DNA of 64,000 nucleotides from contig QPGO01000065.1 in assembly GCA_008632985.1 (NCBI GenBank), forward strand, positions 248,001-312,000. The letters run 5' to 3'. This document shows, piece after piece, positions 1-64,000 of the stretch. Numbering within the stretch: the stretch's first letter is position 1; every line of letters starts with the position of its first letter. The position numbers were made by a program, and so were the translations under genes. The stretch is from Psammoneis japonica. Its lineage: Eukaryota. The notes under the pieces are model-generated. The model did no database searches, was not told where the DNA came from, and saw only the letters and a program-made list of their open reading frames with translations.

Positions 1-3000
1 TGAACAGCGCCTTTGTCATTCACTTTTATGACAAGAGTCAACTCAGGCTGCTCATTGACTCCATCTGTGACAGCCTTGCCATTGCAGCCCTTGAACTGAA
101 CATTTTGCAGAAGCTTTGGGGATGTGCTGTCTGCTGCCTCTTTTGTTTTGTGAGGTGGACCACAAGTGTGGAACCAGAGCCAGTGTCATGGGGAGGAATG
201 GATCCTTGAGCTTGCTGACCACCTTGAGCTCATGGGTGGAATCCAAGGGACAGGCATCACAAGCATCTCCAATGCCATCCCCATCACTGTCACCTGATTG
301 GCATTGGGAAACAAGGGGCAGTTGTCAAAGTCATCGGGCATGCCGTCACGTCAACAGCATCAGGATCCTGCTGCAGCAACTCCAGCACAAAGAGCTTGGG
401 ACCTCCTTCTGTTCCATCATGTGCAGCAAAACATGGGAGCTTTCCATCCATTGGTGCAAAAGCTCAATGGATGCAAATTTTTGAGACCAGGATTGACTTC
501 CTTTGCCATTTCAGTCTTGCACCCAATTCTGCTGACCGTGCATTCTGTCATCAGCACTGAAGCAGAGCCTTCCACCTCCTGTGGGTGTCAAGGACCATGG
601 ATCCAAATGCAGTTGCTGCCAGGATTGGTGTCCTTTGCAACAATGGCTGTGTTGCTTGATGGACAGTGGGTCCAAAGCTCAGTTCCATGCTTTCTGTCTG
701 CAGCACTGAAAAACAGCTTTCCAGCCATTGGTGTCAACTCCAATGGATGTGAGTGCTTGTGACCATGACAAAAATCCTTTGCAATGTTTGTTGTGTTGCT
801 CAATGGATCTTGCATCCAAGGCTTGCTGCCATGCTCAAAGCCTGCAGTGCAGAAAACAGCTTTCCATCCAGGAGTGTCAGGTTGCACAGACAAGAAGAGT
901 GCTGGCAATGGGGATGAATGTCATGCACCACGTTTGTCATTTGATGCAAAGGGGGTTGTGCTTCCAAAGCTCCCTCCCATGCATGAAATTAAATGCAGAA
1001 AGAAACAGCTTTCCATCCGCAGGTGTCAAATGTTTGGGTTCTAAAGACACGACACTGGGAGAGACATCTTTTGCCATTTCAATTGCTCCCCTCATTGGAC
1101 CATGCATCCAAAGCTCTCTCCCATGTGTTTCATCATTGTTGGTGAAGTGCAGCTTTCCACCCATTGGTGTCAACAGCAACAGAAAACACTTCCCACACAG
1201 CAGGGAAGGCTGCTTGTTGTGGCTTTGGTTGGACGGCGAATTGGAAACTGGGTCATGCTGCTTCCGTCCTTGGTTTCTTCCACAATGTGCAACAAAGTGC
1301 AGCTTTCCTCCATCCACAGGTGTCAAATGCTGTTGAGACAAAGACGTGCAAGAACAGGGATTGACACACACTGCGCAAACAGAGCTCCTCCCCATGCACT
1401 CCATTGTTTGTGAGAGGAAGTGCAGCTTTCCGTCCATGGGCTTCAAGCTGTGCAGGTCCGCAAACTCCTTTGGCCAGGATGGGTGTCACATGCCAACTGC
1501 ACTGTTTGACTCAAGGGGCCATGCACCCAAAGCTCAGCTCCAATCACACCACCATCAGCTCTGACTTGCAGCTTTCCATCCATTGATTTCATTCCATCCG
1601 TTGGCACAACCTCGCTGATTTCCACAATCTTGCAGGGTGAGTGATGACCTTGCACCAGTTGGCAACTGCCTTGATTTTGTGCTGGCTTGATGGTGGTCAT
1701 CAAGAGTTTCTGAATTGGTCATTGCCTCAACATGGCCAAGGAAAATGAAAAGCAGACATGAAAAGACTCAACTCTGCATCAAGTTGATGGTTGAGGGTGT
1801 TGCATGACAAGGCTTGAGGAGAAGGTTTTGTGATGTCACTTTTTTGTTTGCACGTGCCACTGCTTTGTGGCAATGCATGTGCGTCTGCCTCTGGCAGAGC
1901 AGAGAGAGCAGAGAGAAGAAACAACAGAAAGGTCACCTGTGAAAGTGTTGGCTGGAAGTTTGTGATCCCTCATGACAATGCCTTGCAGCATGCACAATGT
2001 CACGCGGCATCATGATGGCTGCAAATTCCATGACAGGTGAGGCCGATCAATGCAGCAATGCTCGGGGGGAGAGGGTCGGAGTCAAGCACAGGTCTGGCAC
2101 CAGAATGGGAGTTGGGAGCAGCCAAGAAAACTGAGATGGGCAACACACAAGATGGACAGCTTGGAGAGTTCATTTTTGGTGTGCCAGTGCAAACCCTGCA
2201 TGCAGGGCTCTGCGCGCACAATTCTGAGCAACACAATGTGACAATCTGTGAGCTTCGCCATCTCAACTGAGCACTGCACACTGCAGCACCAACTGTGATG
2301 GAAGTGTGAGACATGACAATGGTGCAAGAGCAGACCCTGGAGCAGCAACAAAGATCAATGCACAAAGCATCACAACTGAGAATCAAAAGAAAGTGCACAT
2401 CATCTGATGACAGTTTGGCCTTCTCTCAAGACCCAGAGCTTCAGCCAAGATGCTGCCCCACCAAACTTTGTGATTGCTCTGCCAGCCTGAAAATGTGCTT
2501 TTCAGCACACAGCACAGCAACTGTGTCAACCAAAGAGCTGCGCACTCATCTGGTGGGCAGCAACACCCATGCAAGCCACACACACAGCACCCAGGAACAA
2601 TCAAGCCCAAAAAGGTGGCACACACCAAAGAAACAAGAAGCACACTGGGACTTGCCCCAGGAGGTGGGCCACACATTGTGCTCTTGACATCTTGCTTTGC
2701 CTCAACACCAGAGCTGCGCCATCAATTTTGGCCAGAAACCTCTTTGTGAGAACACGCTGGTGTGCAGGCAGACAACTCAAGCAGTTTCAGAGCAAGTGCA
2801 AGGAGACCCAATGGAAGCTGGGAACAAAAAGCACACATGCTTGTGGTGCTGTCAATTCTCCCAACATCGATCAACAGCACCACAAGCTGTTTGTGTCCTG
2901 GAAAATCAACAAGGGCAGTGACTGCAAAATCATGGCCAAAAAACACAGAAAACACAAGACCCTCTACATTGATGGCCTCAGCACATGGCGCTGCATGATG

Positions 3001-6000
3001 AGGAAAAGCAGAGCTGCCACACTGTCAAAAATCATGGCAATCATGTCCCAAAAACTCAGTGCAAAGATTCGTCCGGCCAAGTGCTTTGAGTTGTGCCATC
3101 AACTGGACATGACCGCACAACAAAACAGTGAATGAAATGAGTTCCAAGAACTTTTCCATCAGTTTGCCCTGCATGAACAGCTGGAGCAAACTTGCAACGA
3201 CCCTCAAGGATGGGTTCAAAATCCATTTTCTCTGGCTGGTTTCAAACGGGCTCCTCAGTTTCTCTGCAACCATGTGTCTGGAGCACTGAGAGCTTCTCTC
3301 TGCTCTCCAAAACCATGGAAGGAAGAAAAAAGACCATGCTTGCATGATGCACCACTTGACAATGACATTTCATCAGTTGTGCAATCATTCAAAAAAGACT
3401 GCAGTTGCATGGCATTTTGCATGAGTGCCAACACTTCAGAAGTCATGGTGGCATTTTTTCCAAGAGAAGCATTGCCAATTCACACAGAGGCTCCTCCAGT
3501 GTCTGCCACAAGACTCAAGGCAATGTTGTTGGCTGCAATGGCAAAAACAACTCATGGCTGAACACAGCAGGAATGGCGCACTCATTTCATGGGTCAATTG
3601 ATGCTGCATTGAGCAAAGAGTGCTCAATGACCCAAGCAGACACACCAGCTGTGGTGCAGTTGGTGATTGCTGCAGACTTTTTCTTCACAGCAATGTGCGC
3701 ACTGATCAAGGTTGCCGCTGGACTTGAGAGAGTGCAAACAGAGCACATGTGTGCCACGCTGATGGGAGCAGACCTGCACTTGCAGCCAGTGGCTGCCAGC
3801 AATGGCACAGAAGCAGTTGCAGCCATGGCAACAAACCAAAATGGTGCGCAAATGCAAGTTGTGGCAAATGACACAAAATCTGCAAAACATGGCAAAAACA
3901 AAGAGGCAAACATCAAGAGCAAGTGGCAGCTGCAACATTTGCTTTTAAAACAACAACTCAAGAGGAGACAAAATGCTGAAAGATGTTGCAGGCAAAGATG
4001 CTGGATCATGTGTTGCAAGAGATGTGATGAAGGAATGAGGAGCAGGGAGCATTGAAAGAGGTCAAGATTGCAAGCCATGGGAAAGAACACCCGCGTTTCA
4101 AAGTGGGTGCAATTTGGAATGAAGAAGCTCACAAACTTCATCAGTTTTGAACTGACGTTGAAAGGAAGGCTCAACTCATGAGTTCACAACAACACGGGTT
4201 GCCGTCAAGAAACACCCAGACCATGACAGGCGGTCAGACCCAGGTTGTTGGTGCCCCAGACAAATCTCTTTGAGAATCTTCTTCTTGTGGTGACAAACAT
4301 GTGCCAGACAAAAACTCATTCCCATTGCTTCATTGTCCCACCAATCAAAGAAAGAGACTGCACACAGATGTCCAGAAACACCGCTGGTTGTGCTCTTGCT
4401 TGGTGGCGGCCCCAACTGCTGTGCACAACTTGCTGCATTCTGCAACACGTTGCCATGCAGCAGCAGCAACCTCTTCTTGTCAAAAGTTTTAAAATGAAAA
4501 AGTGCAGGGCCAGGGCTGATGATGAGTTGTTGACAAATGCCTGTCAGCTTCCCCAAAGCGTCTCTCTCTAGAGAGCAGCAGCAGCGAGAGAGTGTGGATG
4601 GCATCAGAAACACGCGAGACTGGAGAGGCTCACAGTGGATGTTGCTGGATCTTTTAATCGAGAGCTTGCAATCACGCGTGCAGAATTTGCACCGGGAGAG
4701 TCGTGCGAAAACCGCACAGTTTTTAAAAAATGCCTTGATTCAGCCAATCAGAAGCTCTGAAATCATCCTCTCACACTTGCGTCAGCAATGAATCTTTCCA
4801 AGCGGTCGTTGCACTGCAGACTCCACTGTGCCGGCACCTCCTCTCTTGGGCCCCAGCCAGCCAGAGAGTGCTCTTTACTTCAGCAGCTGCTCTCTGCTCT
4901 GCTGGAGCAGAGAGGGCTCTAGAGTCTAGAACGTTGATGATGCTGGAACCAACCATTGAAGAAACTAATTTCATGAAGCCGCAACATGCCTCTGCAGGTT
5001 AAATGCAAAAGGACAAATTGGCAAAAAGCCGCGAATGATTTGCTGTTGCAACTGTTCCCCGGAAGTGGCAGGACGTTCCAACAGAAACAGGGGGCAAACC
5101 AGCCAAAGGCAGCATTTTTCTGGCAAGCTGTCAGTGGCAGACCTGACTCCCTGAAAGAGTGAGAGCACTGCTTGCCGGCATGGTGTTGAGAACCGAATTT
5201 GCCATGCGTCCAACTCCGCTCCCCATCTGCAAACACACTGCGTTGCCTTTCATGCCCTTGGCCATTGTTCTGGTTCTGATGGAACACAGACATGTCCTCT
5301 GAACCTCGTGATGCCTGCTGGGGAAGAAAACCAAGCAACAACAACAAGAAGAAGTGAGCACAGTGGCGACACTGGGAAACGAAGCAGTCGTCGGTGCATG
5401 CACTGCATCCAATTCGGGGGAGACAAGGCCCTTGAATGCAGAGGCCGACACCCAAGGCCAAGACAAGAGAAATGCGAGTGCTTTCAAAGTGATGGGAGCC
5501 CATGAAACTTGCAGCATGCAGAGAATGGAAATCAAGGTAAACACGTGCCATGCCGCAAGCATTCACAATGGCAGCTTTCAAAATGTCTTGACAATGGCAA
5601 CAAGGTTGATGAGCCAAAGCTGCCAGCATTTTTCTGGAATGCCAGAGGTGGCAGACACCCCAACTGAGCACCATTGCATTGCCTTTTTTCTTGGCAATTT
5701 TGCCGCTTCTCAATCCCTGAACGAGGGAGTGCCGTTTGCTGGCATGCCTTGATGTCGTGACAACCGAAAAGCATGACGTGACGGCGGTCAGACATCTCAA
5801 CCAAATCAAGGATGGATCGGAACGCCACCGTTCCCACCCCATCGACAAACTCAAGTCTGATGCAGAGTTGTGACAATGAGTTGTTGACAAGGCTTGAGGT
5901 GAGTGACACAAGACAAGCAACAACATCAGCAGCAGAAAAGGTCGCGACAGACACGGCGCTGCTTGCCACAAACACCGCAGCCAAAGCAAGGGACATCTTT

Positions 6001-6700
6001 CCTGAAACGGGTCGATTGACTTGAAGAAAGCACCAAAAATGATGTCACATTTAGCAGCAACCACAATCTCAGCTAAATGAAGGAACCCCACAGATCAAAT
6101 TTGCTTCCCCATCAACATCCGCCAACAACATCAACAGAAGAACAGGCCGTGACAAACAGGCTCACGTGTGTTGCAACCAAAATGGAGCGGCACCACTCGG
6201 GATGACAGCATCTTCGTGTTCCGTGTGATCACAGACCACCACAAAATGGGTGGGTTCCATGCTCTTCAATCTGTCGAGAAAGAACAAAAATGGCAACGAA
6301 AGCGGCGAGCAACACGTGTGAATGACAGCACAGTCATGCAAGGCAGTCATTGTCCATTTTTTGATTTGGCCTCACCTCTCTTTTCATTGACACACTCATC
6401 AGAACAAAATGTGATGCAGGGTGCAATGGAGACGTTGGCAGCAACCGCACTGGCGACAACATCTGACACCGCCTGTCACCGCTGTCATGGCCTGTTTTTT
6501 GCAATGATGTTCTCACGAGGGAGATTCTCAGCTCGCGCCGGATTGCGCTTTTGCACACATTTCCACACAGTCTAAAAAACTTTGCATGTGCCAACTGAAG
6601 GTTTTTGACACCAAAACTGACGTTTAACCTCATGCACCGTCATTGCATCTCAACAATGTGACAACAGGCCATCATTTTCGTTTGTTCATTCATCAAGCCA
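1..6700. other. TpA-depleted (and largely CpG-depleted) hypermutated repeat domain A
   Basis: Under ~20 TA dinucleotides seen in 6.7 kb, nearly all TTAA/CTAG/CTAA/TTAG. TG/CA strongly enriched. ORF translations are almost Tyr-free and Cys/His-rich. Confidence 0.9.
52..1936 (-). pseudogene. Decayed secreted ELWxxDGT-like repeat (beta-propeller) protein
   Basis: Repeats of ~48 aa across frames: GKLFFSA..HGTELWTHCP, GKLHFT..HGRELWMHGP, GKLFLSA..HGRELWKHNP, DGKLQV..GAELWVHGP. Hydrophobic leader (TFLLFLLSALSALPEA) at ~1936. Broken by frameshifts and stops. Confidence 0.7.
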
Positions 6701-7297
6701 ATGCAAGGCTTTGTGTTTATGAGGCAAAGGGGGAACAAGGAATCCGCGTGACTAGACCCCTTGAAGGTGTGACACGATTTTTTAAAAATGTTCGGTTCTG
6801 ATTGGCTGAGGGGATCTGTGTGACGCAGTTTTTTAAAAAATCAGTTCCCCACATGTTCTGTGGTGCAAATGCACATGCGCAATTCTGGTAGAAAAAACAC
6901 CGTAGAATGGGTTCGAGCTCCACAATCGATCTAAAATCATCTAAAATGATGGCGAGCTCCGCAGCTGCTGCAAACGGGTCTAAAATGGAGGTGTTGAAAA
7001 GTGGAACGCTTGTGTCCACAAAACGCAGCGTTTTTGAACGCTTTTGTTGTAATGGGAAACAACAGAGTCTCTTTTCTCTTTTTTCTCTTTTCTTTTCTCT
7101 TCTTTCTTTTTCTTTCCTTTTTCTCCTCTCTCTCGCTCTCTTCCCTCTTGGTCTAAAATGCGCTCCAGTGACATGATAAACCACTGGAGAGGTTGGCGGT
7201 CGTGGATTTTGTGGTGGCGGATCAACAGTTTCCCGCGCTTTTGAGTCTTGTGAACCGCAACGTGTTGACACAACTGAGTGAGCGGCGCAGCGAGAGC

Positions 7298-9292: not shown

Positions 9293-11531
<2,239 letters not shown>

Positions 11532-13081: not shown

Positions 13082-13144
13082 TTGATTGATATGATTCTCT
13101 CTTCGAGAGACGAATGTTTGCCCTATGCCAGTAAGATTGTGCTG

Positions 13145-13911
13145 TCTTTTAATATTCAAGTCAGTCCGTTTCGTCTTAAGGAGTTGTCGCATCTGTGGCA
13201 ACCGGACCCACCCCATCAACTGGAGGTATTCAAGGTTTCTTGGTAAAAAAAGCTCGCCGATCATCCATTATTTCAAGGTGGTGCACTTTGAACGCAGCAT
13301 TTGTGGCAATGTGGAGCGCTTTGCCGTGTCTGTATCTGCCATAACTCCTTTGCTACAGTGCGTCTTTCTGATAAGCATGCTCTTCGTATTCAAGAGGCTT
13401 CTCTGCAACCGTCATGAGAGAGGACGTTCAGAAAGCTGTACGCTTGATTCGAGTAGCCACGCAAGCCGCAACGACCGACCCTCGGACGGGTAAGATTGAT
13501 AAGGACATGATTGAGTTTGGATCGTCAGGCGCAGGAAATCGTGTCGTTTCAAATCATGGAGCGCTTGTCTCATGTGAGTTACCACTGTTAAGACAATCAC
13601 GTGTGTATCCTTTTCATTTCTTTTTCTCGTTTGCTCATTTTCATTCTTCCTCTTGTCATACTGAATTGTGCTTGAAAGAAGCGAGGCACTCGTATCGCTG
13701 TGTGGGACGCGGTGCAGCAGTTTGTGGAAATTACCAATGCAGGAGACGAATTGCATCACCATGACGGGGTAGTAAACACTCCTCTAGGAGCCTGGAGGCG
13801 AATGGGTGGGCGCAATTTAATGATCGTGCTCAGACGTTCTTTGTCCATTCCGGGGTATTTTGAAGCGTGTTTGATGTTAGATTCCGTCCGGTGCTGACGA
13901 TGGTGTCCGTC
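13145..13911 (+). pseudogene. MCM4: Internally deleted second copy of the MCM4 pseudogene
   Basis: 13145-13397 matches 18734-19003 and joins directly to 13398-13911, which matches 20157-20678 (VQKAVRLIRVATQAATTDPRTGKIDKDMI). Confidence 0.8.
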
Positions 13912-46800: not shown

Positions 46801-46939
46801 ACTCTCAGATTTCGTCTTATCTATATCTCTCTCTCTCTCTAGCTAGTTCAAAACTAACTTCACGTCTTCTTCCCCAGATTTAATGATTGAGGAAGGGGTA
46901 ATGGCAACTGAATACTGAACAAGACACATTGTCAAGAAC

Positions 46940-49789: not shown

Positions 49790-50670
49790 GCTCACCCTAG
49801 CTTTTGTTCTGTGCGTGTTCCGTTGTCAACGCTTGCCAATACCCACACTTTCCTGTCAGGTGCAAAAATCAATGATGAAGTTCGATAACGTAAAACAGGC
49901 GGCTCATTCGGACTCTTCGTTTACCGCTGGGCCTCTCCGTGCAGCAAGAAGAGCAACCAGTACAATACAGCACGCAGTGATAGGTGGGTCTTAGTGTTGC
50001 GAATTGTGGACGTTGACGCACACCACGGAAATGTCGTAAGTATTTGATGGGTAGTGTCTTGGTCTTGATTCGAACGATTCTCACAGAGTTTATTTTCTTT
50101 TGTTTTCGGTGGACGGAAGAAATTGTGAAAAAGTGCTACGACCCGGGGAGGCTGTTCTTCTTTTATATCCACCTCTATGACAACTTCAAGAGAAGAGGCA
50201 ACGCTTACAAGCTTTACCCGGGGAGTAGTGACGCTCACAATATCATCAACGTCCCTATCACTCCGCTGTGGAAGCAACAATGAGATAGCCCCTCGCAAGT
50301 TCCGGCTGCTCCCAAAACATTTCACAATACACGCAGAAAAGTGAAGGAGGCGGCCGCCGCCGCTACGTTCCATCCACCACCACCCTTCGGGGACAATTCC
50401 GCACCGTTGTCATCTCCTCTACCACCAATAGGCGATTCTCGCGAGATTTTGTGGGGGCTATGAATCGTCGTCGGAGCATGGGGGTGGAGGTCTGAAAGCG
50501 CTCGAACAAGTGACGTAGAAAGTGTGTCTCAAAGAAGTGCAACTGTTACATCAAAGCCGGGGAGTGCACGGTTCCTTTCTGGATCTGGGCGGCATACGTA
50601 CCGACCGGCAATTCAGCATCACCTCTTACCTGCTCTCCGTGCTTTTAACCCCGGTCTTATCTTAATCAGT
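49790..50670 (+). pseudogene. Class II-type histone deacetylase fragment
   Basis: IVDVDAHHGN (~50003-50032), intron-like gap, TEEIV..FFFYIHLYD..YPGS, NIINVP and LLPALRAFNPGLILIS. Truncated before the expected AGFD. Confidence 0.8.
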
Positions 50671-52850: not shown

Positions 52851-55800
52851 CAATTCATTTGCCAAAATCCATCATCCGAATTGATCAAGCTTCCAATCAT
52901 ACGGTACATAATGAAAGCTCTAGCGTAGAATAAACGTTACATCCACTCAATTCCGTTAGGTTCAAGGTTTCTTGTACGTAATGAAAATCGATTCAAGCAA
53001 GGCGAGGCCGCTTGGTTTCGACACTGCCACTGCCATCGACAGGACTGAAGAAGTGCTTGGCAGTGTGTTGATGCTTCAACCTGCAAATTCTGCAGCAACA
53101 CGCAATGTTGCAGTTGGTGCATCTGCCTCTGCAGAGAGCTTCCCATGCATGGAGGGGCATCGGGGGCCTTCAGGAACCAGCTCACCAACATCCAATCCCC
53201 TGACAACCTTCCCCCCACAGCCATCAGCAACTCATCAATGGCAGGGACCCAGCCAGCAAACCCCCCATGCTGACTCCAGCACCATTGTCAACACCCACAC
53301 ACCTGCCAAAGGCCAGCCCCACACTTCATCTCCAACTCCTCCATCTTCATGCCCTGTTTTAGCTTCAGCACCATCATCTCCAACACAAGGTCCAGCCCTT
53401 CTGATGCCAGCTTGTCCTCCATCTGGAAAATGTTGTTGCTCTTGTTCAGAGTTGTTCTGCATTTGACAAGGGCAAACCTTGTGTTCTCATGTTCTCAACA
53501 AGTGCTCATCAACTGTGTTCAAAAAGCCTTTTCAACAACTGAGCCAATCAGCAAAGTGGGAAACAACAATGCTCACTTGTCTTGCTGTGCATTTGATCTT
53601 GACAAGATCAACTTTGCAAACATTGACAACAACTCTTTTTACAACCCACATTGTTCCAACAATTGAGCCAGTTGGCAGCAAAGCAGGAAATGACAATGAA
53701 TTAAATTTTTGACTTGCAGAGTTTTGCACTTGACAACAGCACATTTGAAGCAACACGCTGTTGTGACTCATGTCTGTCAATGCCCACATTAATTCACCCC
53801 ATTAATTTGCTGTTGCCCTCCTGGCTGTGTGTTGCTTGCAATTTGATTTGTGCACTCTGTGATTTAGACTTTCTGCACTCAATTGTGTTGCAGTCTGTTT
53901 CTTGCTCTCTTTTCTCAAGCCCTTTGCTGTCTGCACATGATGCCACCCTGTTGCAGTTGCACTTGCATGGCACTGCAGTGCTCTGCAGTTCTGGTGTCCA
54001 CAAGGATCTTCTGTTGTTTCACACTGTGACCTCACACACTCTTGCTTTTGTTGAAAAGTGTGCTGGGTCAGCCAAAGCTTTGCTCACAAAAAAAGAAGAG
54101 GGTGCAACAAAAATTGTGAGTTCTGCATGTGTTTCATTTTGAATCATCTTTGCTTTGGTGCAGCTTCTGTTTGCCTTTCTGCATCCCCTGCAGCACTGTC
54201 TTCCCATCTTGCTCAGCTTTCATGTCAACATGCCTGAGCTCCAAGATTGGCAAAAGTGTCAGTTGTTTGCATTGTTCTCATGCGCGCATGCTTTCATGCC
54301 TCGCACATCATTTCTCTTGCCTCAACTTGCCTCCCAACTTTGTTTGGTTGTGCCCAGCCCTTTGCTCTGCTGTTGTTGCCTTCTTGCAATGCTGTCATTG
54401 TCAGGATGTTGGGCGGGCTCTCTTGTGTTTGCATTTTGTGTCTTGTGAGGCAGCGATGATTTGCTGTTGCACCCACACCAAGCCAGTCAGCCAAGGTGAT
54501 CAGCATCTGTGTCATTGTTGCACTGGCCATTTTTTTACTCCATGTTTGCCTGCACTGTTGCAGATTTCAATGATTTGAGCTGACTCAAATGAGTGACATT
54601 GGTTTTCTGCAGTTTGAATGCTGTTTTTTACAAACTGTTGCACAGGTGACACCTGGATGCAAAACACCACTCAAATCAGATTGGTTTTGCTGTTGTGTCT
54701 GCAGAAGGTCAATGTCTCAGTTTTTGCCACACTGGTGTGGTGTCTTTGCAGGACAGCAGAGCAGATGCCCGATGCAGTCAGTGCACTTTGTTTTCATGCA
54801 GCACAAGGCAGCAGAGCAAGACAAAGACTTGCACTTGCAGCCACTCTCCTCCTTTGCATGTCTCCTGGCCCAAGAAAAAAATGCTTGCACAAATCATGGG
54901 AAAGACAGTGCTTTTTCATTGTGACCACCAGCTCTTCCTCCACTGGACAAAGCTTCTTGGTGGTTGCAAAAGCCCAGCTTCTTCCATTTCCTCCAAATCC
55001 AGTGCATCAAAGTGGCACATGCCATCATCATTGTCAAAGAAACCTGCATCATTGTCGCTCCTTGTCAATGTGGGAAGAGGACAAGTGAGAACAGTGAAGA
55101 GCAAGAGAGCATGTCAAACTTCTTGCTAAAAAAAAGCACATCATCATGGAGTGGTGCACCAACGTTGAACAGGCTCCAAGTTGTGCTCAGTCTCCCGCAA
55201 GTGCTAAAAATCACTGTGGCCATTGCAAAGTCACTCACCACCTTGTTCATTGGCAGAGACATTGCCATCATTCACCCATTGAGATTCTCGGACACTGGCA
55301 GGAGGGAAAAAAGGGGGGGTGGCAAAAACACAATGGATCACCGTCAAGAAGGACAGGGGCCTGAATCCATCAGCACCCAAGCCAAGGGAGTGGTTGACAG
55401 ATCTGACTGACCCAAAGAGCACAGTGCAGCAGCATTGCTTGAGAGGGGCCAATGGGAGAGGGAGGTGAAAGAGCACTGGGAACATGTGCTGGGTGTCCCT
55501 TTTCACTTGATGTTTTGCTTGTTGCTCCTGAGCCTCAGGGCAGTGTGATGGAGCAACAGCTGTCAAGAAGAAGGCTGGCAAAGAAAACTGCTGCAGCATG
55601 TCTTGGGCATTCTCTTCATTGTCAGCGCATGCATTTTTATTTGCTTTGTTTTCTTTGATTGTTTTGCTTGATTCAACAGAGAACAAGGTCCGAACCTGAG
55701 CGCGACTGTGTCCAAGGAAATCCAAGTCATCGTGCCCACCCTTTTCACTGTGCACGGCAAAGTGGAGCTCCTTGTTTGTGCATTTGCAACTCAAGCAGCA

Positions 55801-58800
55801 ATCTGGGACTGTGCACATTTCCTCAGAATGGGACCCTTGATGACAGAGTCAAACAATGGAATGGGACGTGAACAAAGAGAGGCGTGGAATTTGCAAACAC
55901 ACGTTTGAACCTCTGAAGGTGAAAAGACCAGGCTGCAATGCCACCTTCATGCCTTCAACATGAACTTGTTGCACACAAGTCCATGCAACCAACAGAGAGC
56001 ACAATCCTGCAAGCTCCAACACTTCTTTTGTGTCATCTTCGACCATGCATCAACCAGTGCTTGTTCCTTGTCAGAGATCAAGTGATTGAATCTGTTTGTC
56101 ACCTCTTCCTCAAGCCCAGCCTTCTGGACTGCCAACATGGAAGACTTGACAGCCACAGAGTCACCCAAAGACTTGCAAGTTGACAAAAGCAGCAGCTTCA
56201 ACGAGCATCTTGCAGAGAAAGTCCAGCAATGGGGATGCTTTGATGCCAGTTGCTCCCCAAAGGACAGGGCAGGTCAGCTGAAAATCCCGGAGATGCTTTG
56301 CACCTCTGTGATTTCTGCCACAATGTCGTCAACTCCAACGTTGCTCCATGGACACAAATGGATGCAGCATGCGCGTGGGACCCTTCCTGCAAACACTCAA
56401 GGACGGCTTTCACAAGAGGGCTCTTGTGCAGTTTGTTTCCGTCATTGTTGGTTGAAAGCTTTTCTTTACAGCCTTGGAAAATGAGCACAAGGATGATGCG
56501 TGACACTGAGATGCCATCTGCTCTAGCTTGTCTTCAAGAGAATCTGAGTGGTTGATTTCATCTTGGTCTCTGTCCTTGTGTTGAGGCTGCTTGGCCAGAG
56601 AAGCGACAACCTGAGTGACTCTTGACTTGAGTGGCCTTGATGCACCACTTGTGGCATGCACCAAAATCTCTGCAGCGGGCATTGGCTTGTGTCTGCATCC
56701 TTGTTGCTGCTGCTTGGTGCAGCAACTTCATCTTCATCATGTGGAGGCTTGTGTTCAACAAGACCGCGGGCTGCCGTGCATCCGCTTTGACATTGCAGGA
56801 GCAAAAAACATGAGCCAACATGTCCCCAATGCAACTGACGGGATCGTGCACTTTGTCTTCAAAGGGGGGCATTCCATTGCAGGCAGAAGTCAATGCCAAG
56901 AGGAATCATCTTGTCTCTTCTGATCTTCTGGATGCAGCAGCAATCATCTTGATCAAGTGAGAGCAGAAAGTGGGCACGTCCATTTTCAAACAATGAAGAA
57001 ATTGCTTGACAAGGTCCAGGCACAACGCTTTGTCCAAAGCATCAGCATCCACAGGTTGTTGCAGCTGCTGCAACAGCTCTTGCAAATTCAGATGAATTTG
57101 CAACCACTGACAGAGCCGCTCACATGCTTGTTGTTCCTGTTTTGAGGTCAACAATTCCAACAGCAGAAGCAGCACCGAGACTTTGCTTGATTGAATCTGT
57201 GCCTCCCTGCATTTCCACATCTGTTCCACATGTTTTGCTCAACTCATGCCGAATGGTGCGGACATGATCCAAAGCCTTGAGAAACTGCGTGCCTCTCATG
57301 TCAAGGTCATCAAAGGCGTGCTGATCCAGCAAGAGTGACTCGTTCTGTGACAAATCAAATTTGTCAAGGAGCTCATCCACTGCTTGAGCCCCCGCTCTTG
57401 TGCTTGATTTCATTCTTCAAATGCTCTTGCCAGTTCAGCTGCTTGTTCTTCTTCACATCCCACTTCTGGCAACGACTCCTCAGATTTGCTTCTGATGAGG
57501 TGGCTCCAGAAGTGCTGTTGTGAACACTTGCACTCACTTCACGCGCACAATCGATGCTGTTGTCATGACACTTCGCCTCAAGTCCTGGACTCTCTTGACG
57601 GGATTCTGAAGTTCCTCTTGCATTGAAAGAGCTTGTTCCAGAGTGTCCTCTTCAATCGCAACTCGCACTGACCATGAACCATGAATCAACCATGGGCAAA
57701 TGGCAAATGCACCAGTGCTTCTCACGCTGCCTTCATTGCTGTTGCATCTGTGCAAACCTCCAATGCACGAGACATCTTGTTGGCAAGGATGTCGGCACCC
57801 ACAGATGCGGTGGTGTTCTCATCATGGTCGGCCATGGTTCAAGTGAGTTGCTCTCTTGGCTCTGCTCATGTGGCAGAGATGCTGTCATGAGTTGGAAAGT
57901 TGAAATGGGCAAATGGCAAATGGTTCATGTGATTTCATGCGGTTGGCTTGGATGCATGCTGACAAGATCATTGCACGGCCAATGTGCAGACAGCATGAGG
58001 ACTGAGCAGTGATTCCCCTTTGCAGCATCTGGTGCACTTTCTGCCATTTGTTTCCCCAGCAGAAGTGCGCGAGTTTGCCGCAGTGTTTTCAGGCACAAAC
58101 GATGTGTGGGTGCACACCACAGGAATGACAAATGTACAAAATTTTAAAATCAGAATTTCTCCCTCCAACCTCCTTCACAAGAGGCCAAAGGGACAAAAAA
58201 AAGATTGAGAAAAGACACAGCACAATGCGTGGTGTCTCGTCAGCTGGCGTCAGTCTTCCCAAGTCGGGTGGAGATGCAGTTGCTCTGTGGTCAAATCGTC
58301 CCAATTGTCTGCACTGTTTCAACACACATGTTTGCAAAATCTGATGATCAAACTGAGAGCACAAAATCTTGGACACAAAGGCAGATTCTTGCCTGGCAGG
58401 GTGAGAAGAAAACGTTGCTTGTGGCTGTTCTGGGTGAGGGTGGCACGAGGGTGGCTGAATGTTCTTTTGATCTGTTGTTGAATGTTGCCACAAGCGCTGT
58501 TCATGAAGTGGTGCCTTTGTGTGCAAAAATGGCAAAGACAAAACAGAGAGAACACCAGAGCAGACACCATCACAGACAGTGGGAGGGAAAACGATGATGC
58601 TTTTTGAGTTGATGACAGGCCATGGAGTTGTTCGGTCCACCAGATCTAGATTGGGACAAACGAGTCGATGGGTTCAAATTTCATCAGAACAGCCTCCCAC
58701 AGTTTGTGTGATGAAAGATTGTGATGGGAAAAAAGCACCAAATGCCAAACACTACCTGAATTTGGTGAGTCAACTTGCACTGGAGCTGCGCTTGTTTGTG

Positions 58801-61582
58801 GTTGCACACTGCACCCCAGCACAAGAGCTCAATCTTTCTCAGCCTCTTGCTTGACCACTGCCATGTGTGCTGGAAAGAAATGCTCCTCCTCTGGCATTTT
58901 CAAGCCTTTCATGCATCAGCTGCAAAACACACAACACCCAAACAATGTGCTCATCAACATTGCAACAATTTGCACTTGACTTGAGCTCTCATCAAAGATC
59001 AATTTGAACTTAACTTGAGCTCTCATCAAAGATCAAAGGCACCTTCTTCTCTTGAGTTCTTTCTTTGAGTTTGCAATCAAAAGAGCTGCTGTGAAAAGAT
59101 CTTCCACTCCAGCCAACAAAACCCACACATGCTGGGCTCACACCATCCCAAAACACTAGAAAAAACACACCAACCCACAATTGTCCTCCAAAGCCACTGC
59201 TGCAGAAACAGGAAAAAGGCACTTTGTTGCTGTGCCAGCCCCAGTGTCCGAGACTGAATCTTCATCATCACAGTGAAGCACAACGTGAGCAGATGTTTGG
59301 TGGATTTTCTGCCAGTGCACAATCCACATTGTCCACAGGGAAGATAAATTTGTGCTTGTTTCTGAGGCTTTTGCATGTCATTGAAATTTGTTGTTCTCCA
59401 AATGATTGTGCAGATGAGCTCAAAAAAGCACAGAACACCCCAAAACAACTCTGGAAGCTGGGTGAATAAAATTGCTGTTTGGCGGTGCAAACAGGGTTGC
59501 CCCAAAGTGCTTCTCAAAACACCTTCAGATTGAATGTGGCAAAATGTCTGCTGTTGACAAAACAGAGTCACTGTGGCAAGACAGACCACGGTTGGCACCA
59601 CAACACACAACAACACCATGGCAAGCAATGCCAACGCCGTTCAATCATCTGCCAGCAGGCATTTCCAGATGAGATCAAAGCTGTTGGACAACATTTGTGT
59701 GCTGCATTGACCCACACCATGTTTTTTGATTTGGCTGCAAGTTGGCTGCTTCTGCTTGATCACCAGCCACCGAACAGCTTTTCCTGCAGGGTGTGGCCAG
59801 TTGCTCATAAAATTGAACCCAAATTGCCGGACCAACTGCCCCCAACCCTTGAAAGTGTGAGACTGTGTGGCTCTGGGTCTGCACTGCAGAAAAGATGAAG
59901 CCACTGCACTGTGAGAACAGAAGACAACTTTGTTGTGAGGGCACAGGTGTGCACAAAGGCACCTTGTTGAGTGCTGTCTTTTTCTGCCATTTGCAGCCAC
60001 AGAGCACAGTCAACCTGCAGCTCAGGGCACCATCCAGTTGCTTCTCTGCTTCTTTTTTCCTGCCATTCTCAACCACAGAGAAAAGCAACTTGCAGCTCAG
60101 GGCACAGCATCCACATGCAGTTGCTTCTCTTCTTTCCTTTTCTTTTTCTGCAATCTGCAGCCACAGAGAACAGGCAACTCACAGCTCACGGCACAATCCA
60201 GGTTGCTTCTCTGCACCTGTCAAAAAGCACTGTCAAGAGCTTTTGAGATGTGACACAGCTGGCACAACAAGAGACTGTGAGAGCAGCAAGCAGTTCTCTC
60301 CACAAAATGCTGCAGATGGTGGCAGCAGCAGTTGTCTGCATGCAAAGTGTTGCCAAAATCACCCGAACATGTTGCAAAGAAAAGAGGAACACACTGCAAT
60401 GGCAGTGCATTTTTCAGGCCTTCTTGAGCTGATGCACTGAAGGAGTCTGTGACAGAGCTGCTCAGACAGCATGCACAATGGCACTCATCTGTGTCTTTCT
60501 TGTTGATCAAACATGCAAAAAATGTGCCCATCATTTTGAGCTGACTTGGAAAAATCAAAAGTTGAAGTTGCATTTTTTGAAATGCTTTGCAGGCTGTCAT
60601 GTGCATGCTGCGGTGACCCCACCAGTGTGGATGGCACTCTTTTTGTGTCAAAAAGCAAGAGCAGCAGCAGAGGATGAGGCATGAAGCACCTTCTTTGATT
60701 GTTGGGTGCTTCACCACTTGACAATGAAGCAGGCATTTCTGGCTCTTTTGGGGTGCTGCAAAGATGTGCAAGGCTGCTTCACAGGCCCTCCTCCCTTGAT
60801 GCCAAGGAAGACACAGCCACCAAGCCCAAAGCCACTGATGATCTGGGTTTGGAGCAATGGAAGATGTCAGAAAGACACCAGCAGTCTCCCAATGTCACAG
60901 TCTTTGTCCTCTCAAGTTTTTTTGGGGCCAGGCAAGCATTGCAAAGTGGATGGTCTCAAGCTTCTGTGCTTTAACCATGCAAGGGGGGGCTGGCAGTGGC
61001 TGCTGCACACACTGCAAGAAACAAATCTTCTTGTGCCGCTCTTTGAGAAGAATGAAAAACCTCAATTCTGGAGGGCCAAACAAATGCTGGAAGCCACCAT
61101 CAATCAAAGCCAAGAAGCCATTTGAGCTGGAGCTCATTTTCATTCCAAGAAAGCTGGTCATGATTTGATTGATGCAAAGGAATGTGGAATGAGACCACAG
61201 CAGGGCCCTCCCAATGGGATGTTTGCATCCATTGCTCTCAACCTCTCACATTCTTGTGATTGACTCACACAGCAGAACCCTGCACAGTCACTCACACTGA
61301 GAATGAACCACACATTTAGCACGCCAAACATCTGCTGGTGCAATGGCTTGTCATGGCTTTGAAAGCATCTCAAAATTCTTGTCATCTTGCACTTGCACCA
61401 CTCAACAACATGATGCCACTTGACTTGGTTTTGTTGATGCAACATCACATGGTGGCAATCCAGCAATTGCCTTCTGCAAGGTCCACCCGCAGAGAGCAAG
61501 GAGCAGTCTAGCAAAGATCAGAAGACCTGGCATGATCTTCAAACAAATGGCAAGCCTCTGTCTTCAATGCACTTAAAAGTGC

Positions 61583-61661
61583 TTCTGCCATGTTGGCCAC
61601 AGTTTGGCAAACATTGCTGTCACCTTCTGCCATGTTGGCCACAGTTTGGCAAACATTGCTG
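61583..61661. repeat. Short tandem duplication (38-bp core, 42-bp period)
   Basis: cttctgccatgttggccacagtttggcaaacattgctg occurs twice. Confidence 0.9.
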
Positions 61662-62159
61662 CTGTCACATTGGTGCTTTTCTGATGTCTCCTTGTTGTCT
61701 GTCTCACTGAATTCCATGAAAAACACAGGAACTGCATCAGGGACTGCCAGTTGGAGCCAAGTGCATTTCTGGTGGCTGGGGGTCTCAACTCACATCATTG
61801 AAAAGCTGCAGACCAGGGCTGGGCCAGCCATTGTTGGGGAGAATGTCCTTAGAAACCAACATTCTGCTGAAGCAAAGTCAACCATTGGGAGGGCTTGAGA
61901 GCTCCAACTCCATGTCCAAGTCTGTTTTTGGCACCAGCTGTTGTTGTGTTGGCTTTTTGGATGCCTCCATCAGTGCTTCCAACACATTTCAAAGCAAGGC
62001 CAGAACATGGTCTGTGGAGCAACAGCACTGCCGTGTCTGGTCAGTTGGGCACCATGTTGATGCTTTGGGGCAGAGCTTTGTGTGCACTTGCAGCAGTGAG
62101 AAGCAACAAGCAGCTTGCAAACTTTGCACAACATTTGGAATTCAAAGGAGCACCACAAG

Positions 62160-62960
62160 TCACCAACTTTCTCTGGAGACATGGACAAGACAAGATGGAA
62201 CAATTGCTTGCTCATTTTGCATCATGCCATCTTAATGCAAAATGTGCATTTCTCCCTGGTGATCACAAATTCATGCAGTGTCTCTGGTGGCTTGAGCCAA
62301 GCACTTGTTGGGCAACTCTGTCCTTTGAAAATGGCTGTCACATTGTGCAGCTGCTGTGCATCAGCAGCAGCATGCTGAGGGAAAGGCAATCTCAACTTGA
62401 GCCGACTTTTGAGTGACTTTTCTTGTGTCAACAACATGAGGGCGGGTGAGATCAAAAGCCACTCTTTTTTTTAGAGCACAGCTGTTGCAATGTGGACCCT
62501 GATTTTTGCACAGTCACCAACTTGCAATTGCTTTGATGAGTGGGGAACAATGTCCCCCCGTGCATTTGCAAATGCTTTGACATGCTGACAAGGCTCTCAC
62601 CAGAGCACATCAAACCAAGTGGCTGCTCTCTTCATTTTGCCCCACTTTTGTTGCACCAACAATTGCTCCACAACACAAAGGGTCATCATCTTGGGGAGCA
62701 AAGTTTTCTGTTTGTCTCTGCATGAGCAAACAAGCCAACAAAATCTTCCATTTGTTTGTGTGTGGCTGTTCATTGGGAGCCTGTGAGATGCAACAAGTCA
62801 GAGAGTGTTTTTCTTCTGTCTTGCACAAAGAGAACACAAAGAGAGACACACTGTGACTCACCTTTTTTCTCTGGAAACATGGACAAGACAAGATGGAATG
62901 GTTGCTTGCATCATGTTGTTTGATGTCATGCCACAACAATGCAAAAGATGCATTTCATTC
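62160..62960 (+). repeat. ~95-bp diverged direct repeat (62160-62255 and 62860-62957)
   Basis: ttctctgga(g/a)acatggacaagacaagatggaa(caa/tgg)ttgcttgc is shared. Confidence 0.75.
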
Positions 62961-64000
62961 TCCCCAGCAGAGCAGAGCTCAATTTGAGGCCCAGTGTGAA
63001 TTAAGACCCTTGTGCTGTCAGGCTCAAATGATGGATGATTCAAGGCAAGAGCTCCACAAAAACATCACAGGAACAGTGTGCGATGAATGGTCAATGGCCA
63101 TTTCCACCTGCAGTGCAGCTGCAAAAAGGTGACTGTGCTGCCACAAATGGAGGTCCAAATGAACAACACTGCACCAATCCTCATCATGTTGATGCATGGG
63201 TGGATCCTGAGCAGCTTCATTGCTGCAGTCCATGGATCAATTGGCTTGCTCCTCATGGCTCTCCTCTGTTTCTCCAGTGCCTCTCATTGAACTCTTCTGG
63301 CTTTTGAAAATTTCAACTGGTTTCTCCTTGTTGCGCTGACCTTCATGAACAAAGATGACACAGTCAACAAACATGACAGAGCACATTCTTCTGTCTTTGG
63401 ATGCTCATTTGGCAGGGCCATGGCGCATCTTTTATGTCACGTCAATGCAGTGCAGGGATCCTGCACAGGACACAGTGCCAATTCCATGCATGTGATGTGG
63501 AGGGCCTTGAATCATGACCATGTTGTCATCCTTGCTTGTCGGACGTTTTGGTTCACATGCCAAAACTCATCAACCACCCAGATTTGAAAAAGTGGAACAA
63601 CTTTTTTTCTGACAAGTTCAATGTGATCTTTCATGCAAATGCACAAAAGTGTGAAATTCGCGCGCATCATGTTGTCTGCATGGGTGCAGTTCTTGGCCGG
63701 GCCTCAACTGCGCTCCACTCTAGAAGTTGTTGCAAATTCATGCTTTCCACTTTCTGTGCAGTCTCTGTGGTGGCTGCTGGCTAGAGAGGTGCTGTCAGTT
63801 GAAGTGAAACGTCATCATGCACGCATGCCAACCACTCAAATTTTCAAAAATTCTCCGCACAAATTGGTGCTTTCTCAAACCCCTCACCCGGCACATCCCA
63901 GAACTGCCACAAAAAAAAGGTGAGGGACCTGGATCCTTTTTTAAAAGGTGAGTTTCTTGACACCCTCCTGGATCACATGCTGAAAAAGGATCCAGGGAAA

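Follow-up and report, generated by a model that had tools for sequence, protein, structure and literature searches.

TpA-depleted blocks in a diatom chromosome region: candidate products of a targeted TpA-to-TpG/CpA hypermutation process

What removes nearly every TpA dinucleotide from some segments of a chromosome region and leaves the DNA beside them unaltered? The question is raised by a 64,000-bp stretch of the diatom Psammoneis japonica (assembly GCA_008632985.1, contig QPGO01000065.1, positions 248,001–312,000), referred to here as the window. A sequence-only reading had seen almost no TpA in about half of it and had proposed a ‘reverse RIP’ directed at repeat DNA. Here we describe the extent, direction and sequence context of the TpA loss, the DNA that it affects, and the processes that could account for it.

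Extent of TpA loss in the window

The depletion is borne out by counting: the blocks, 31,522 bp when pooled, contain 114 TpA where ∼1400 are expected, an observed/expected ratio (o/e) of 0.05. The TpA o/e per window is 0.00–0.18 inside the blocks and 0.37–0.89 outside (per-kb and 250-bp counts). A two-state HMM used to segment the window by TpA depletion assigns the depleted state to 1–6717, 28745–39292, 40546–41558, 41895–44396 and 53020–63999, a total of 31,760 bp or 49.6% of the window, in almost exact agreement with the block coordinates of the sequence-only reading. Sliding-window o/e values, which that reading had suggested computing, recover the TpA-depleted blocks within the 64-kb window, with a CpG o/e of 0.05–0.95 inside them. 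The criterion used for TpA-poor clusters in Bigelowiella natans (Mettrop et al., bioRxiv 10.64898/2026.01.13.699255) is passed by 29 of 64 per-kb windows, in runs of 7, 10 and 11 plus one lone window, although our o/e may differ slightly from the Rho of the preprint.

Block 1 (1–6717) contains 19 TpA in 6717 bp, with a CpG o/e of 0.1–0.55, and continues past the start of the window; its tail, to ∼7050, carries TpA in slow contexts only (6 YTAR, 3 RTAR and no RTAY in 6718–7100). Block 2 (28745–39292) contains 42 TpA in 10,548 bp and is composite, with an N gap at 31897–32277 that is flanked by a 912-bp duplicate. Block 3 (40546–44396) contains 18 TpA in its two HMM segments, between which lies a G+C-rich interval (41559–41894) with two more; its CpG is almost intact (o/e 0.62–0.95) and a tail of partial depletion reaches ∼44777. 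Block 4 (53020–64000), where CpG decay is strongest (o/e 0.05–0.40), contains 34 TpA in 10,980 bp and continues past the window end. Segments are either saturated or untouched, and the borders are abrupt, resolved to <100 bp. At the sharp left border of block 2 (28744/28745), TpA occurs every 10–50 bp as far as 28744 and then not before 28920; the left border of block 4 falls between the last TpA ahead of it, at 52979, and the following one, at 53360.

The DNA between blocks 1 and 2 (6718–28744) serves as a gene-bearing control with normal TpA (o/e 0.42–0.80) and common RTAY sites. Its ThiC, with 88–93% identity to diatom proteins, marks the DNA as that of a diatom; a nucleotide-sugar transporter, SAICAR synthetase and a Peptidase_C48 ORF are also encoded, as are MCM fragments. 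We considered whether the process had spread into the adjoining methyltransferase gene and 25.3–27.1 kb, where TpA o/e is ∼0.4, and rejected this; the low TpA there reflects codon usage, because there is no excess of TpG and CpA and, in 25.3–27.1 kb, RTAY sites remain.

The composition of the blocks differs from that of the gene-bearing DNA in a simple way. Pooled gene-bearing DNA (30,553 bp) has 1358 TpA (o/e 0.64), 1731 CpG (1.01), 2242 CpA (1.17) and 2233 TpG (1.18), whereas the blocks have 759 CpG (0.41), 3416 CpA (1.73) and 3266 TpG (1.67). In dinucleotide frequency the blocks have lost 0.041 of TpA and 0.033 of CpG, offset by a gain of 0.066 in TpG plus CpA. Applying only TA→TG/CA and CG→TG/CA changes in silico to the normal DNA of the window brings the squared error relative to the composition of the blocks down from 0.0055 to 0.0004. 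The G+C content is unchanged (48.5% in blocks, 47.4% in gene-bearing DNA) only because CpG decay offsets the A:T→G:C gain.

Direction, strand symmetry and sequence context

Two copies of one repeat family record the change most directly. Copy A (37793–38162, plus strand) lies inside block 2 and is hypermutated; copy B (44778–45145, plus strand) lies just outside block 3, in a region (44800–46300) with a TpA o/e of 0.69, and is unmutated. They are 91% identical as DNA and 98.4% identical in purine/pyrimidine space. Within the alignment copy B has 27 TpA, of which 24 are TG (11) or CA (13) in copy A, against changes at 7 of 170 A/T positions outside TpA; the pair shows 24 transitions and 2 transversions at TpA positions. 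A second pair, at 34817–34936 in a block and 50211–50328 outside, has all five of its TpA converted. Paired copies differing by TA→TG or TA→CA thus exist, as had been claimed, with an excess of these changes over other A:T changes; the change is confined to TpA. In a control pair with both copies in normal DNA, the corresponding figures are 1 of 28 TpA and 7 of 240 other A/T positions. Linked duplicates in normal DNA (13391–13914 and 20150–20679) are 94% identical and untouched, so duplication alone is not the trigger.

The polarity of the change can be read from a gene fragment in block 3 (40886–41437, minus strand), located within ORF 40793–42139 (minus strand). It encodes the N-terminal domain found in a protein family that is associated with diatoms and has no Pfam model. 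The search returned 11 relatives (best E 7e-26, 44% identity), and tblastn with 10 of the 11 matched 40886–41437 only. Seven alignment columns have Tyr in at least half of seven relatives; in the window three of these positions are His (CAT), one is Cys (TGC), and Tyr, Leu and Asn occupy one each, so that conserved tyrosines correspond to His or Cys at four of seven positions, against an ancestral TG/CA state. The Tyr content is 2.7–5.1% in the relatives and 0.9% in the ORF. On these comparisons the direction is TA→TG/CA; the directional, context-specific A:T→G:C change at TpA put forward earlier finds support in the copy pair, the Tyr→His/Cys polarity and the mass balance alike.

The two strands are struck equally and independently. 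TpG and CpA are nearly balanced in each segment (658/782, 308/316, 713/729, 379/319 and 1208/1270), and their order along the blocks is random (3334 runs, 3337 ± 41 expected, z −0.08), as anticipated from the sequence-only reading that both strands were affected.

Surviving TpA sites reveal the context of the change. The 114 survivors comprise 68 YTAR, 42 mixed and 4 RTAY sites, against 228, 677 and 453 among the 1358 TpA of normal DNA (χ2 132, p 2e-28). An independent-strand model with four rates set by the 3′ neighbour, which presumes that the blocks started with the composition of the adjoining gene-bearing DNA, fits these data (χ2 19.4, 12 df) and improves on a single rate (LRT 148, 3 df). 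The fitted rates are 2.64 for TAT, 2.06 for TAC, 0.93 for TAG and 0.38 for TAA, placing 5′-TAY sites ∼3–7-fold above TAG or TAA. The gain at mixed sites is 25.4 per kb for YTGY and RCAR, the predicted products, and 8.7 per kb for YCAY and RTGR. The rate is set by the base 3′ of the target A, in the order TAT ≥ TAC > TAG > TAA; equally, the target could be the T in the context RTA. Error-prone synthesis of the Pol eta type (WA→WG), one of the chemistries offered in the sequence-only reading, fits poorly because ApA and TpT are not depleted (o/e 1.22 and 1.28 in blocks, 1.13 and 1.10 in gene-bearing DNA).

Ordinary CpG→TpG/CpA decay overlies the TpA loss in the same blocks and is slower. The two processes are distinct, since the loss of TpA is as complete at a CpG o/e of 0.05 as at 0.95. 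Surviving TpA number 2.69 per kb in CpG-decayed windows and 5.14 per kb otherwise (p 0.035), which weakly suggests long activity in place.

The DNA in the blocks and a later insertion

Block 2 is separated from block 3 by a 1.3-kb repeat with normal TpA (39242–40559), flanked by a 12-bp direct repeat, TTTCTCAATCTT, at 39230–39241 and 40560–40571. The interval 39293–40545 has 79 TpA (o/e 0.75), of which RTAY is the largest class (28 of 79). This repeat entered the block after erasure, and blocks 2 and 3 were therefore formerly a single block. Self-comparison of the window in purine/pyrimidine space found no additional long repeats (LTRs or TIRs).

The blocks had been described as coinciding with transposon remnants, and this is borne out only weakly and in part. 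The 368 block ORFs (150 of at least 90 aa, 218 of 55–89 aa) yielded no transposon or viral Pfam domain and no reverse transcriptase domain; one fragment is weakly recombinase-like. Six weak Pfam matches among the ORFs of at least 90 aa (E 2e-4 to 8e-3) all lay below the curated cut-offs and were discarded, and a search for relatives of ORF 29966–31090 returned none. The lack of recognizable domains probably arises because TA-containing codons (including those for Tyr), stops and signals have been rewritten; TpA erasure can hide mobile elements from annotation.

The recombinase-like fragment is that of the polarity test. We presume a resemblance of its family to the tyrosine recombinase catalytic motif R..HxxR..Y, and the product may be the tyrosine recombinase of a Crypton-like element. 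A Cre-like fold is at most hinted at by a poor AlphaFold model (pLDDT 47.1, pTM 0.26) of a long family relative, P0125, the window itself having the N-terminal domain only; a Foldseek search with this model gave no match at E ≤ 0.001, with Cre accounting for 20 of the 43 matches listed (best E 0.084). The long relatives have no Pfam match, a sequence search of the PDB was null (best E 0.64), and relatives of the family were not found in metagenome contigs.

Three public sequencing runs (X1–X3), from one study and one sample, contain the stretch. X2 and X3 cover little of it, and none of the listed holders is an RNA run. X1 contigs reproduce the TA-less sequence at 34376–34825, 36312–36759 and 36992–37268, with 2 differences in 450 nt, 4 in 448 nt and 1 in 277 nt, respectively; X1 is possibly the assembly's own sample, and the match is therefore not independent support. 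On 13.7 kb of the stretch there are 6730 X1 contigs, a depth that does not equal copy number but that suggests repeat families. Differences between X1 and the window inside blocks involve CpG, with CpG↔TpG/CpA differences still polymorphic; TpA takes part in none of the 29 events listed, giving no sign of ongoing TpA change. Four TG↔CA double differences were considered as proof that sites had been resolved independently in place, and were rejected, an ancestral CpG explaining them equally well.

Mechanism and relation to known systems

That the blocks record real TA→TG/CA mutation we hold with high confidence. On balance, the best explanation is that discrete repeat or foreign segments of diatom nuclear DNA are subject to targeted, near-saturating TpA→TpG/CpA mutation of the same kind as in B. 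natans. It is probable that the process operates in place at the DNA level; adenine deaminase chemistry is a tentative assignment. On this explanation, double-stranded chromosomal DNA would be mutated over a long time, in segments marked as foreign or silenced, with the process switched or targeted per element. The leading candidate for the chemistry is that a nucleic-acid deaminase favouring 5′-TAY-3′, TadA/ADAT2-like or other, converts adenine to hypoxanthine, a base that pairs with C. The element would be irreversibly inactivated: Tyr codons would become His or Cys codons, TAA and TAG stops would be lost and TA-rich signals destroyed. The sharp borders, the all-or-none state and the unmutated DNA at 39242–40559 and 44778–45145 are also compatible with mutation ahead of integration, or with a process that has since been switched off.

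Mutation before integration is unlikely. It holds that extrachromosomal or viral DNA, or cDNA, is deaminated in one burst at replication, much as retroviral cDNA is by APOBEC3, and inserts without TpA, the chromosome being untouched thereafter. Borders of <100 bp between saturated and untouched segments, the TA-normal repeat within erased DNA, copy B unmutated beside its block and the lack of TpA polymorphism between X1 and the window are all as it would predict. However, the blocks are composites of differing sequences, all of them saturated, and TG and CA alternate randomly where burst deamination of a single strand usually leaves strand-coordinated tracts. CpG-decayed windows, presumably the older ones, also have fewer TpA, though C→T at CpA/TpG should rebuild them, a difference that argues weakly against a single burst. 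The B. natans process, as the preprint describes it, works on integrated single-copy DNA.

An in-place process with thymine as its target is slightly more doubtful still. Here an oxidized or modified T in R-T-A (5hmU or 5fU, made by a TET/JBP-type dioxygenase) would miscode as C. The signature is strand-symmetric, making A→G in TAY indistinguishable from T→C in RTA, and in the DNA of dinoflagellates 5hmU is concentrated at TpA. Near-complete conversion, on the other hand, demands very efficient miscoding, and a dioxygenase gene was not found within the window.

We consider it very improbable that element transcripts were edited from A to I by an ADAR/ADAT-like enzyme and then reverse transcribed and re-inserted. 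ADAR is not known outside metazoans, and sense-strand copying predicts TpG only, whereas TpG equals CpA in every block and the two are randomly interleaved. Nor do the preferred 3′ pyrimidine, the slowness of TAG and the absence of a reverse transcriptase domain from the 368 block ORFs agree with this route, although an element-limited, all-or-none pattern does, as does the 5′ U/T preference typical of RNA adenosine deaminases, ADAR and ADAT enzymes among them (10.64898/2026.01.13.699255).

Two explanations are extremely improbable. Reversed polarity, with TG/CA inherited (for example, from a TpA-lacking donor) and TA copies made by RIP-like CpA→TpA change, gains from a lone copy pair that is not polarizable by itself and from a local TA richness in copy B (24 TpA in 45001–45250), but it conflicts with the tyrosines conserved in seven outgroup relatives, with the dinucleotide profile that the TA-bearing compartment shares with housekeeping genes, with a survivor context and product asymmetry that match removal rather than creation, and with the direction observed in B. 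natans (10.64898/2026.01.13.699255). A sequencing or assembly artefact, in which a modified base at heterochromatic TpA is misread, can appeal to the sole run with the sequence, possibly the assembly's own data and from no independent platform, but modification of palindromic TpA on two strands would give a TG/CA mixture per site where sites are instead fixed and reproduced in X1 contigs, a base read as G or C by polymerases would be copied so in the cell too, and the coding changes and sharp element borders fit real mutation.

The targeted process that we favour shares features with several known systems. Fungal RIP, which depends on RID or DIM-2, makes C:G→T:A changes mostly at CpA, creates TpA and lowers G+C. 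The two are alike as irreversible transition hypermutation of discrete repeated or foreign segments, at the DNA level, on both strands and in a dinucleotide context. Here, in contrast, A:T→G:C change removes TpA (TAY→CAY/TGY), and duplication is not the trigger, with copy B, the duplicates at 13.4 and 20.2 kb and the nested repeat all unmutated. Deamination of 5mC at CpG also yields TpG and CpA, and CpG decay is present in the same blocks, but TpA loss is beyond its reach and its extent varies 20-fold among equally TpA-free blocks. The earlier argument that neither fungal RIP nor 5mCpG decay yields this pattern holds, with TpA lost rather than made and CpG decay a second, separable process.

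APOBEC3 acting on retroviral cDNA and ADAR hyper-editing of dsRNA likewise cripple invading nucleic acids by context-specific enzymatic transitions. APOBEC converts C to U, and ADAR works on RNA, leaves one-strand signatures and prefers a 3′ G; here the changes are on both DNA strands, favour a pyrimidine on the 3′ side and are slow at TAG. The TadA and ADAT2–ADAT3 enzymes resemble the diatom process in targeting an A that follows T or U, as tRNA A34 follows U33. The natural loop of bacterial TadA is U-A-C-G, a TAY context. In the substrates of eukaryotic ADAT, A34 is followed by G, A or C, from which the TAY rule would not be predicted. Activity on DNA has been reported for BjADAT2 and TbADAT2, as cited in the B. 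natans preprint (10.64898/2026.01.13.699255).

That preprint (10.64898/2026.01.13.699255) makes outdated the statement, in the sequence-only reading, that no described system has this signature. In mutation-accumulation lines of B. natans it documents hypermutation of integrated viruses by TpA→TpG/CpA change: two integrated viral regions received 231 of the 302 new mutations, almost all of these 231 were A→G or T→C transitions, and every such transition lay at TpA. TpA-poor, CpA+TpG-rich clusters occur genome-wide, a subset of 324 CDS has a TpA frequency of 0.0018, and an ADAT2-like adenine deaminase is proposed. Our literature search found no report of such hypermutation in a diatom. As in that account, the changes here consist of A→G and T→C at TpA alone and affect both strands; most affected DNA in B. 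natans is likewise described as unannotated, and activity there is seemingly on or off rather than constitutive. The host here, in contrast, is a stramenopile and not a chlorarachniophyte rhizarian, erasure is near-complete (the active NCLDV region of B. natans has a Rho of 0.45), and the targets resemble repeats and, possibly, a recombinase element rather than recognizable viruses. The TAY rule for the 3′ neighbour is absent from the preprint's main text, though its Table S2 may hold contexts. New mutations were seen directly in B. natans, whereas the diatom signature is known from sequence alone.

The diatom case is of the same kind as the B. natans process, and what it adds is the sequence context, the saturation and the later, unmutated nested insertion. 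Going by the preprint, TpA-removing hypermutation had previously been shown in that one species only. A saturated signature in a diatom points to a process that is old or recurrent among major marine algae, and it may be widespread across algae. Such erasure is able to reshape a large share of a genome, here about half of the window.

To our knowledge, no genome-defence-like process removing TpA by A:T→G:C change was known before 2026. A far-reaching version, which we rate as speculative and rather unlikely, is that diatoms possess a guided chromosomal DNA adenine deaminase, a double-strand 5′-TAY-3′ A-to-G editor aimed at new or silenced DNA and erasing every TpA; it would be homologous to that of Bigelowiella, represent a ‘reverse RIP’ immunity ancestral to much of SAR, and shape as much as half of certain regions of diatom chromosomes. 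The rule of fast TAY and slow TAA sites is a biochemical fingerprint for testing deaminases or thymine oxidases put forward as candidates. Some diatoms are open to genetic manipulation, and in these the enzyme, guide and trigger would be directly testable; a natural adenine editor of double-stranded DNA would also be of practical interest.

TpA-erased blocks and their boundaries

Per-kilobase dinucleotide counts and TpA counts in 250-bp steps reveal four stretches of the window that are almost without TpA. A two-state HMM with emissions for TA, TG/CA and CG assigns these blocks to positions 1–6717, 28745–39292, 40546–41558 together with 41895–44396, and 53020–63999, within about 100 bp of where a sequence-only reading had placed them. 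The erased segments cover 49.6% of the window (31,760 bp). Pooled over 31,522 bp, the blocks contain 114 TA (observed/expected, o/e, 0.05), 759 CG (0.41), 3416 CA (1.73) and 3266 TG (1.67), compared with 1358 TA (0.64), 1731 CG (1.01), 2242 CA (1.17) and 2233 TG (1.18) in 30,553 bp of gene-bearing DNA. The G+C content is equal inside and outside (48.5% versus 47.4%). Relative to gene-bearing DNA, dinucleotide frequencies in the blocks are lower by 0.041 for TA and by 0.033 for CG, and this loss is recovered as a gain of 0.066 in TG+CA. When only TA→TG/CA and CG→TG/CA changes are simulated on the window's own normal DNA, its squared distance from the composition of the blocks falls from 0.0055 to 0.0004.

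The left edge of block 2 is sharp: TpA occurs every 10–50 bp until 28744 and next at 28920. Other edges are also abrupt, with flanking TpA pairs at 39292/39295, 40537/40674 and 52979/53360, and each segment is either saturated or untouched with respect to TpA. A 336-bp, G+C-rich (62%) interval inside block 3 (41559–41894) contains 2 TpA and 38 CpG and lacks the TG/CA excess; the HMM calls it normal solely because its CpG is high. This interval belongs to the ORF 40793–42139(-), in a part that precedes the conserved domain and to which none of the relatives aligns.

Direction of change

Two copies of one repeat family, copy A in a block (37793–38162) and copy B outside (44778–45145), are 91% identical as DNA and 98.4% identical when only purine/pyrimidine character is compared. 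In copy A, 24 of the 27 TpA of copy B are converted (11 to TG and 13 to CA), and transitions elsewhere affect 7/170 other A/T positions, 4/43 CpG positions and 1/97 other G/C positions. All five TpA are converted in a second pair (34817–34936 versus 50211–50328). These conversions substantiate the earlier statement that paired copies inside and outside the blocks differ by TA→TG or TA→CA. The bias is absent from a control pair located entirely in normal DNA (13391–13914 versus 20150–20679; 1/28 for TpA versus 7/240).

Outgroup proteins give the same polarity. Residues 272–418 of the 449-codon ORF at 40793–42139(-), P0121, have 11 relatives in a library of 1.84 billion proteins (best E 7e-26, 44% identity), seven of which were aligned for polarity. 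At the seven columns where at least half of these seven relatives have Tyr, the window encodes His (CAT) three times and Cys (TGC), Tyr, Leu and Asn once each. The His and Cys codons correspond to TAY→CAY and TAY→TGY, precisely the changes proposed. The Tyr content is 2.7–5.1% in the relatives versus 0.9% in the window ORF, where His+Cys amount to 8.7%. The dinucleotide profile of the TA-bearing compartment is that of housekeeping genes, and the blocks are therefore the derived state.

Real TA→TG/CA mutation in the window is accordingly very probable. The competing explanation, a sequencing or assembly artefact in which a modified base at TpA is misread, is highly improbable. Contigs of the public sequencing run X1 repeat the TA-less sequence, with 2 differences over 450 nt, 4 over 448 and 1 over 277, but this agreement is not independent because X1 may come from the very sample behind the assembly. 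A stronger argument comes from the sites themselves: modification of both strands at palindromic TpA would read as a mixture of TG and CA at each site, whereas fixed TG or CA is seen, and a base that polymerases read as G or C would be copied likewise in the cell.

Between 33376 and 37680, the sole X1 contigs over several places differ from the window, mainly by CpG↔TpG/CpA exchanges but also by four adjacent TG↔CA swaps. Only half of the 31-mers of the compared stretch are present in X1. Together these observations indicate that the version of the block in X1 comes from a different haplotype or strain or is a close copy.

Strand symmetry, sequence context and CpG decay

Both strands are equally hit, as the sequence-only reading had proposed, with TG/CA counts by block of 658/782, 308/316, 713/729, 379/319 and 1208/1270. 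TG and CA follow one another at random along the blocks (3334 runs versus 3337 ± 41 expected, z -0.08); the same test in genic DNA gives z -6.0. Strand-coordinated tracts are therefore absent, and sense-strand RNA editing is made very unlikely by the equal and randomly interleaved products.

The 114 TpA that survive in the blocks comprise 68 YTAR, 42 mixed (RTAR or YTAY) and 4 RTAY sites, versus 228, 677 and 453 among the 1358 TpA of normal DNA (chi2 132, p 2e-28). A model fitted to 16 tetranucleotide counts treats hits on the A of the two strands as independent events, each with a rate that depends on the base 3' of that A; it describes the data (chi2 19.4, 12 df) and is much superior to a single rate (LRT 148, 3 df). 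The fitted products of rate and time are 2.64 for TAT, 2.06 for TAC, 0.93 for TAG and 0.38 for TAA. Products at mixed sites are as the model predicts, with YTGY+RCAR raised by 25.4 per kb versus 8.7 per kb for YCAY+RTGR. Given the strand symmetry, the context rule can be written equally as T→C in R-T-A. ApA is not depleted in the blocks, which speaks against the WA-type chemistry of an error-prone polymerase, one of the mechanisms suggested earlier.

The CpG o/e in the blocks ranges from 0.05 (60–62 kb) to 0.95 (41–42 kb) while TpA is erased throughout, so TpA and CpG are lost by separable processes, with TpA loss either outpacing CpG methylation decay or proceeding independently of it. Inside the block, X1 contigs differ from the window mostly by CpG↔TpG/CpA, and none of the 29 listed events is a gain or loss of TpA, indicating that CpG decay is still segregating and TpA loss is fixed. 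Surviving TpA number 2.69 per kb in strongly CpG-decayed windows (n=16) versus 5.14 in windows with near-intact CpG (n=7; Mann–Whitney p 0.035; Spearman 0.35, p 0.066). This weak tendency towards fewer TpA where CpG is decayed is the opposite of what would follow from one early burst and subsequent ordinary C→T change at the abundant CpA/TpG.

Erased and untouched DNA, and comparison with Bigelowiella natans

The blocks had been described as transposon remnants, which is only partly supported. Across 13.7 kb, and mainly at 37.4–45.2 kb, 6730 X1 contigs align with 88–99% likeness, a pile-up that fits repeat families, although its depth is not equal to copy number. No transposon or viral Pfam domain is found in the 150 block ORFs of at least 90 aa or in all 218 of 55–89 aa. 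The P0121 family, which includes a hypothetical protein of the diatom Skeletonema menzelii, has no Pfam model in any of six relatives scanned (6/6), and its gene in the window has the N-terminal domain only. Long members carry motifs that we take to be reminiscent of tyrosine recombinases. Foldseek searches with a low-confidence model of a family protein (pLDDT 47.1) gave no match at E ≤ 0.001; Cre/Tre recombinase accounts for 20 of the 43 weak matches listed (best E 0.084). A diatom is known to host Cryptons that belong to the CryptonS group (PMC3212892). A 912-bp segment occurs twice in block 2 (29996–30907 and 32278–33189; 99.1% identity), flanking a 381-N gap (31897–32277). The two copies differ at 8 sites, all transitions (purine/pyrimidine identity 100%), and reflect either collapse or expansion at an assembly joint or a tandem duplication that took place very recently in the erased block.

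A 1.3-kb repeat with normal TpA (39242–40559) lies within the erased DNA, bounded by the 12-bp direct repeat TTTCTCAATCTT at 39230–39241 and 40560–40571. The insert arrived after erasure and stayed unmutated. It resembles a young non-autonomous mobile element of unplaced class, with internal tandem units of ~110 bp (about 40280–40522) and a 200-codon ORF (39751–40353(-)) that has no Pfam match. Copy B and the 94%-identical linked duplicates at 13391–13914 and 20150–20679 are likewise unmutated. Neither position nor duplication alone therefore triggers the process.

The gene-bearing DNA encodes ThiC (9296–10570(-)), 88–93% identical to ThiC of the diatoms Nitzschia inconspicua, Thalassiosira, Cyclotella, Pseudo-nitzschia, Mayamaea and Phaeodactylum, together with a nucleotide-sugar transporter, SAICAR synthetase, a Myb protein, MCM fragments, a Ulp1-type peptidase and a valyl-tRNA synthetase fragment. 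The ThiC match bears out the diatom assignment of the sequence-only reading; this DNA is not from Bigelowiella. Partial duplicates at 13140–13914 and 18729–20679 (82% and 94% identity) coincide in part with ORFs that carry MCM P-loop and MCM lid domains (19482–19826, 20115–20432), suggesting a fragmentary MCM gene duplication in normal-TpA DNA. Within the SAICAR synthetase frame (ORF 22191–23159(-)), the 5' part contains 3–4 tandem units of ~75 bp, 94–98% identical (22986–23301). The ORF 25334–25759(-), with neighbouring ORFs at 25660–27070(-), has a Peptidase_C48 (Ulp1) domain (E 5e-14); TpA is somewhat low in this region (o/e 0.42) and the hypermutation signature is absent. Some CryptonS and other mobile elements carry Ulp1-like peptidases (PMC3212892), so the ORF may belong to an element that has not been mutated. 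Word depth of X2, a second run of the same study and sample, is high at 45600–46700, over the valyl-tRNA synthetase C-terminal fragment (46372–46839(+)), and near nothing elsewhere on the compared stretch; X2 may have come from another type of library.

The earlier statement that no such system had been described is outdated by a preprint dated 2026-04-14 on the chlorarachniophyte Bigelowiella natans (bioRxiv 10.64898/2026.01.13.699255), and the mechanistic reading offered with it agrees with what that preprint shows directly. In B. natans mutation-accumulation lines, two integrated viral regions took 231 of the 302 new nuclear mutations. These were confined to 11 of 15 lines and consisted almost wholly of A→G or T→C changes, every such one at TpA. 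Its genome has 124 clusters of TpA-poor, CpA+TpG-rich windows and 324 almost TpA-free coding sequences enriched for transposase and reverse-transcriptase domains, and an ADAT2-like deaminase is proposed. The preprint's main text mentions neither diatoms nor context beyond TpA, and a full-text literature search found no report of the signature in any diatom.

The system described in 2026 from that one rhizarian alga shares with ours TpA-targeted A:T→G:C hypermutation, but the host lineage here is a diatom. In this diatom, discrete segments have undergone directional, TpA-specific A:T→G:C hypermutation with CpG decay on top. What this window adds is the lineage, erasure that is nearly complete across half of its 64 kb, a 5'-TAY preference that acts independently on each strand, the independence from CpG decay and the unmutated nested insertion.
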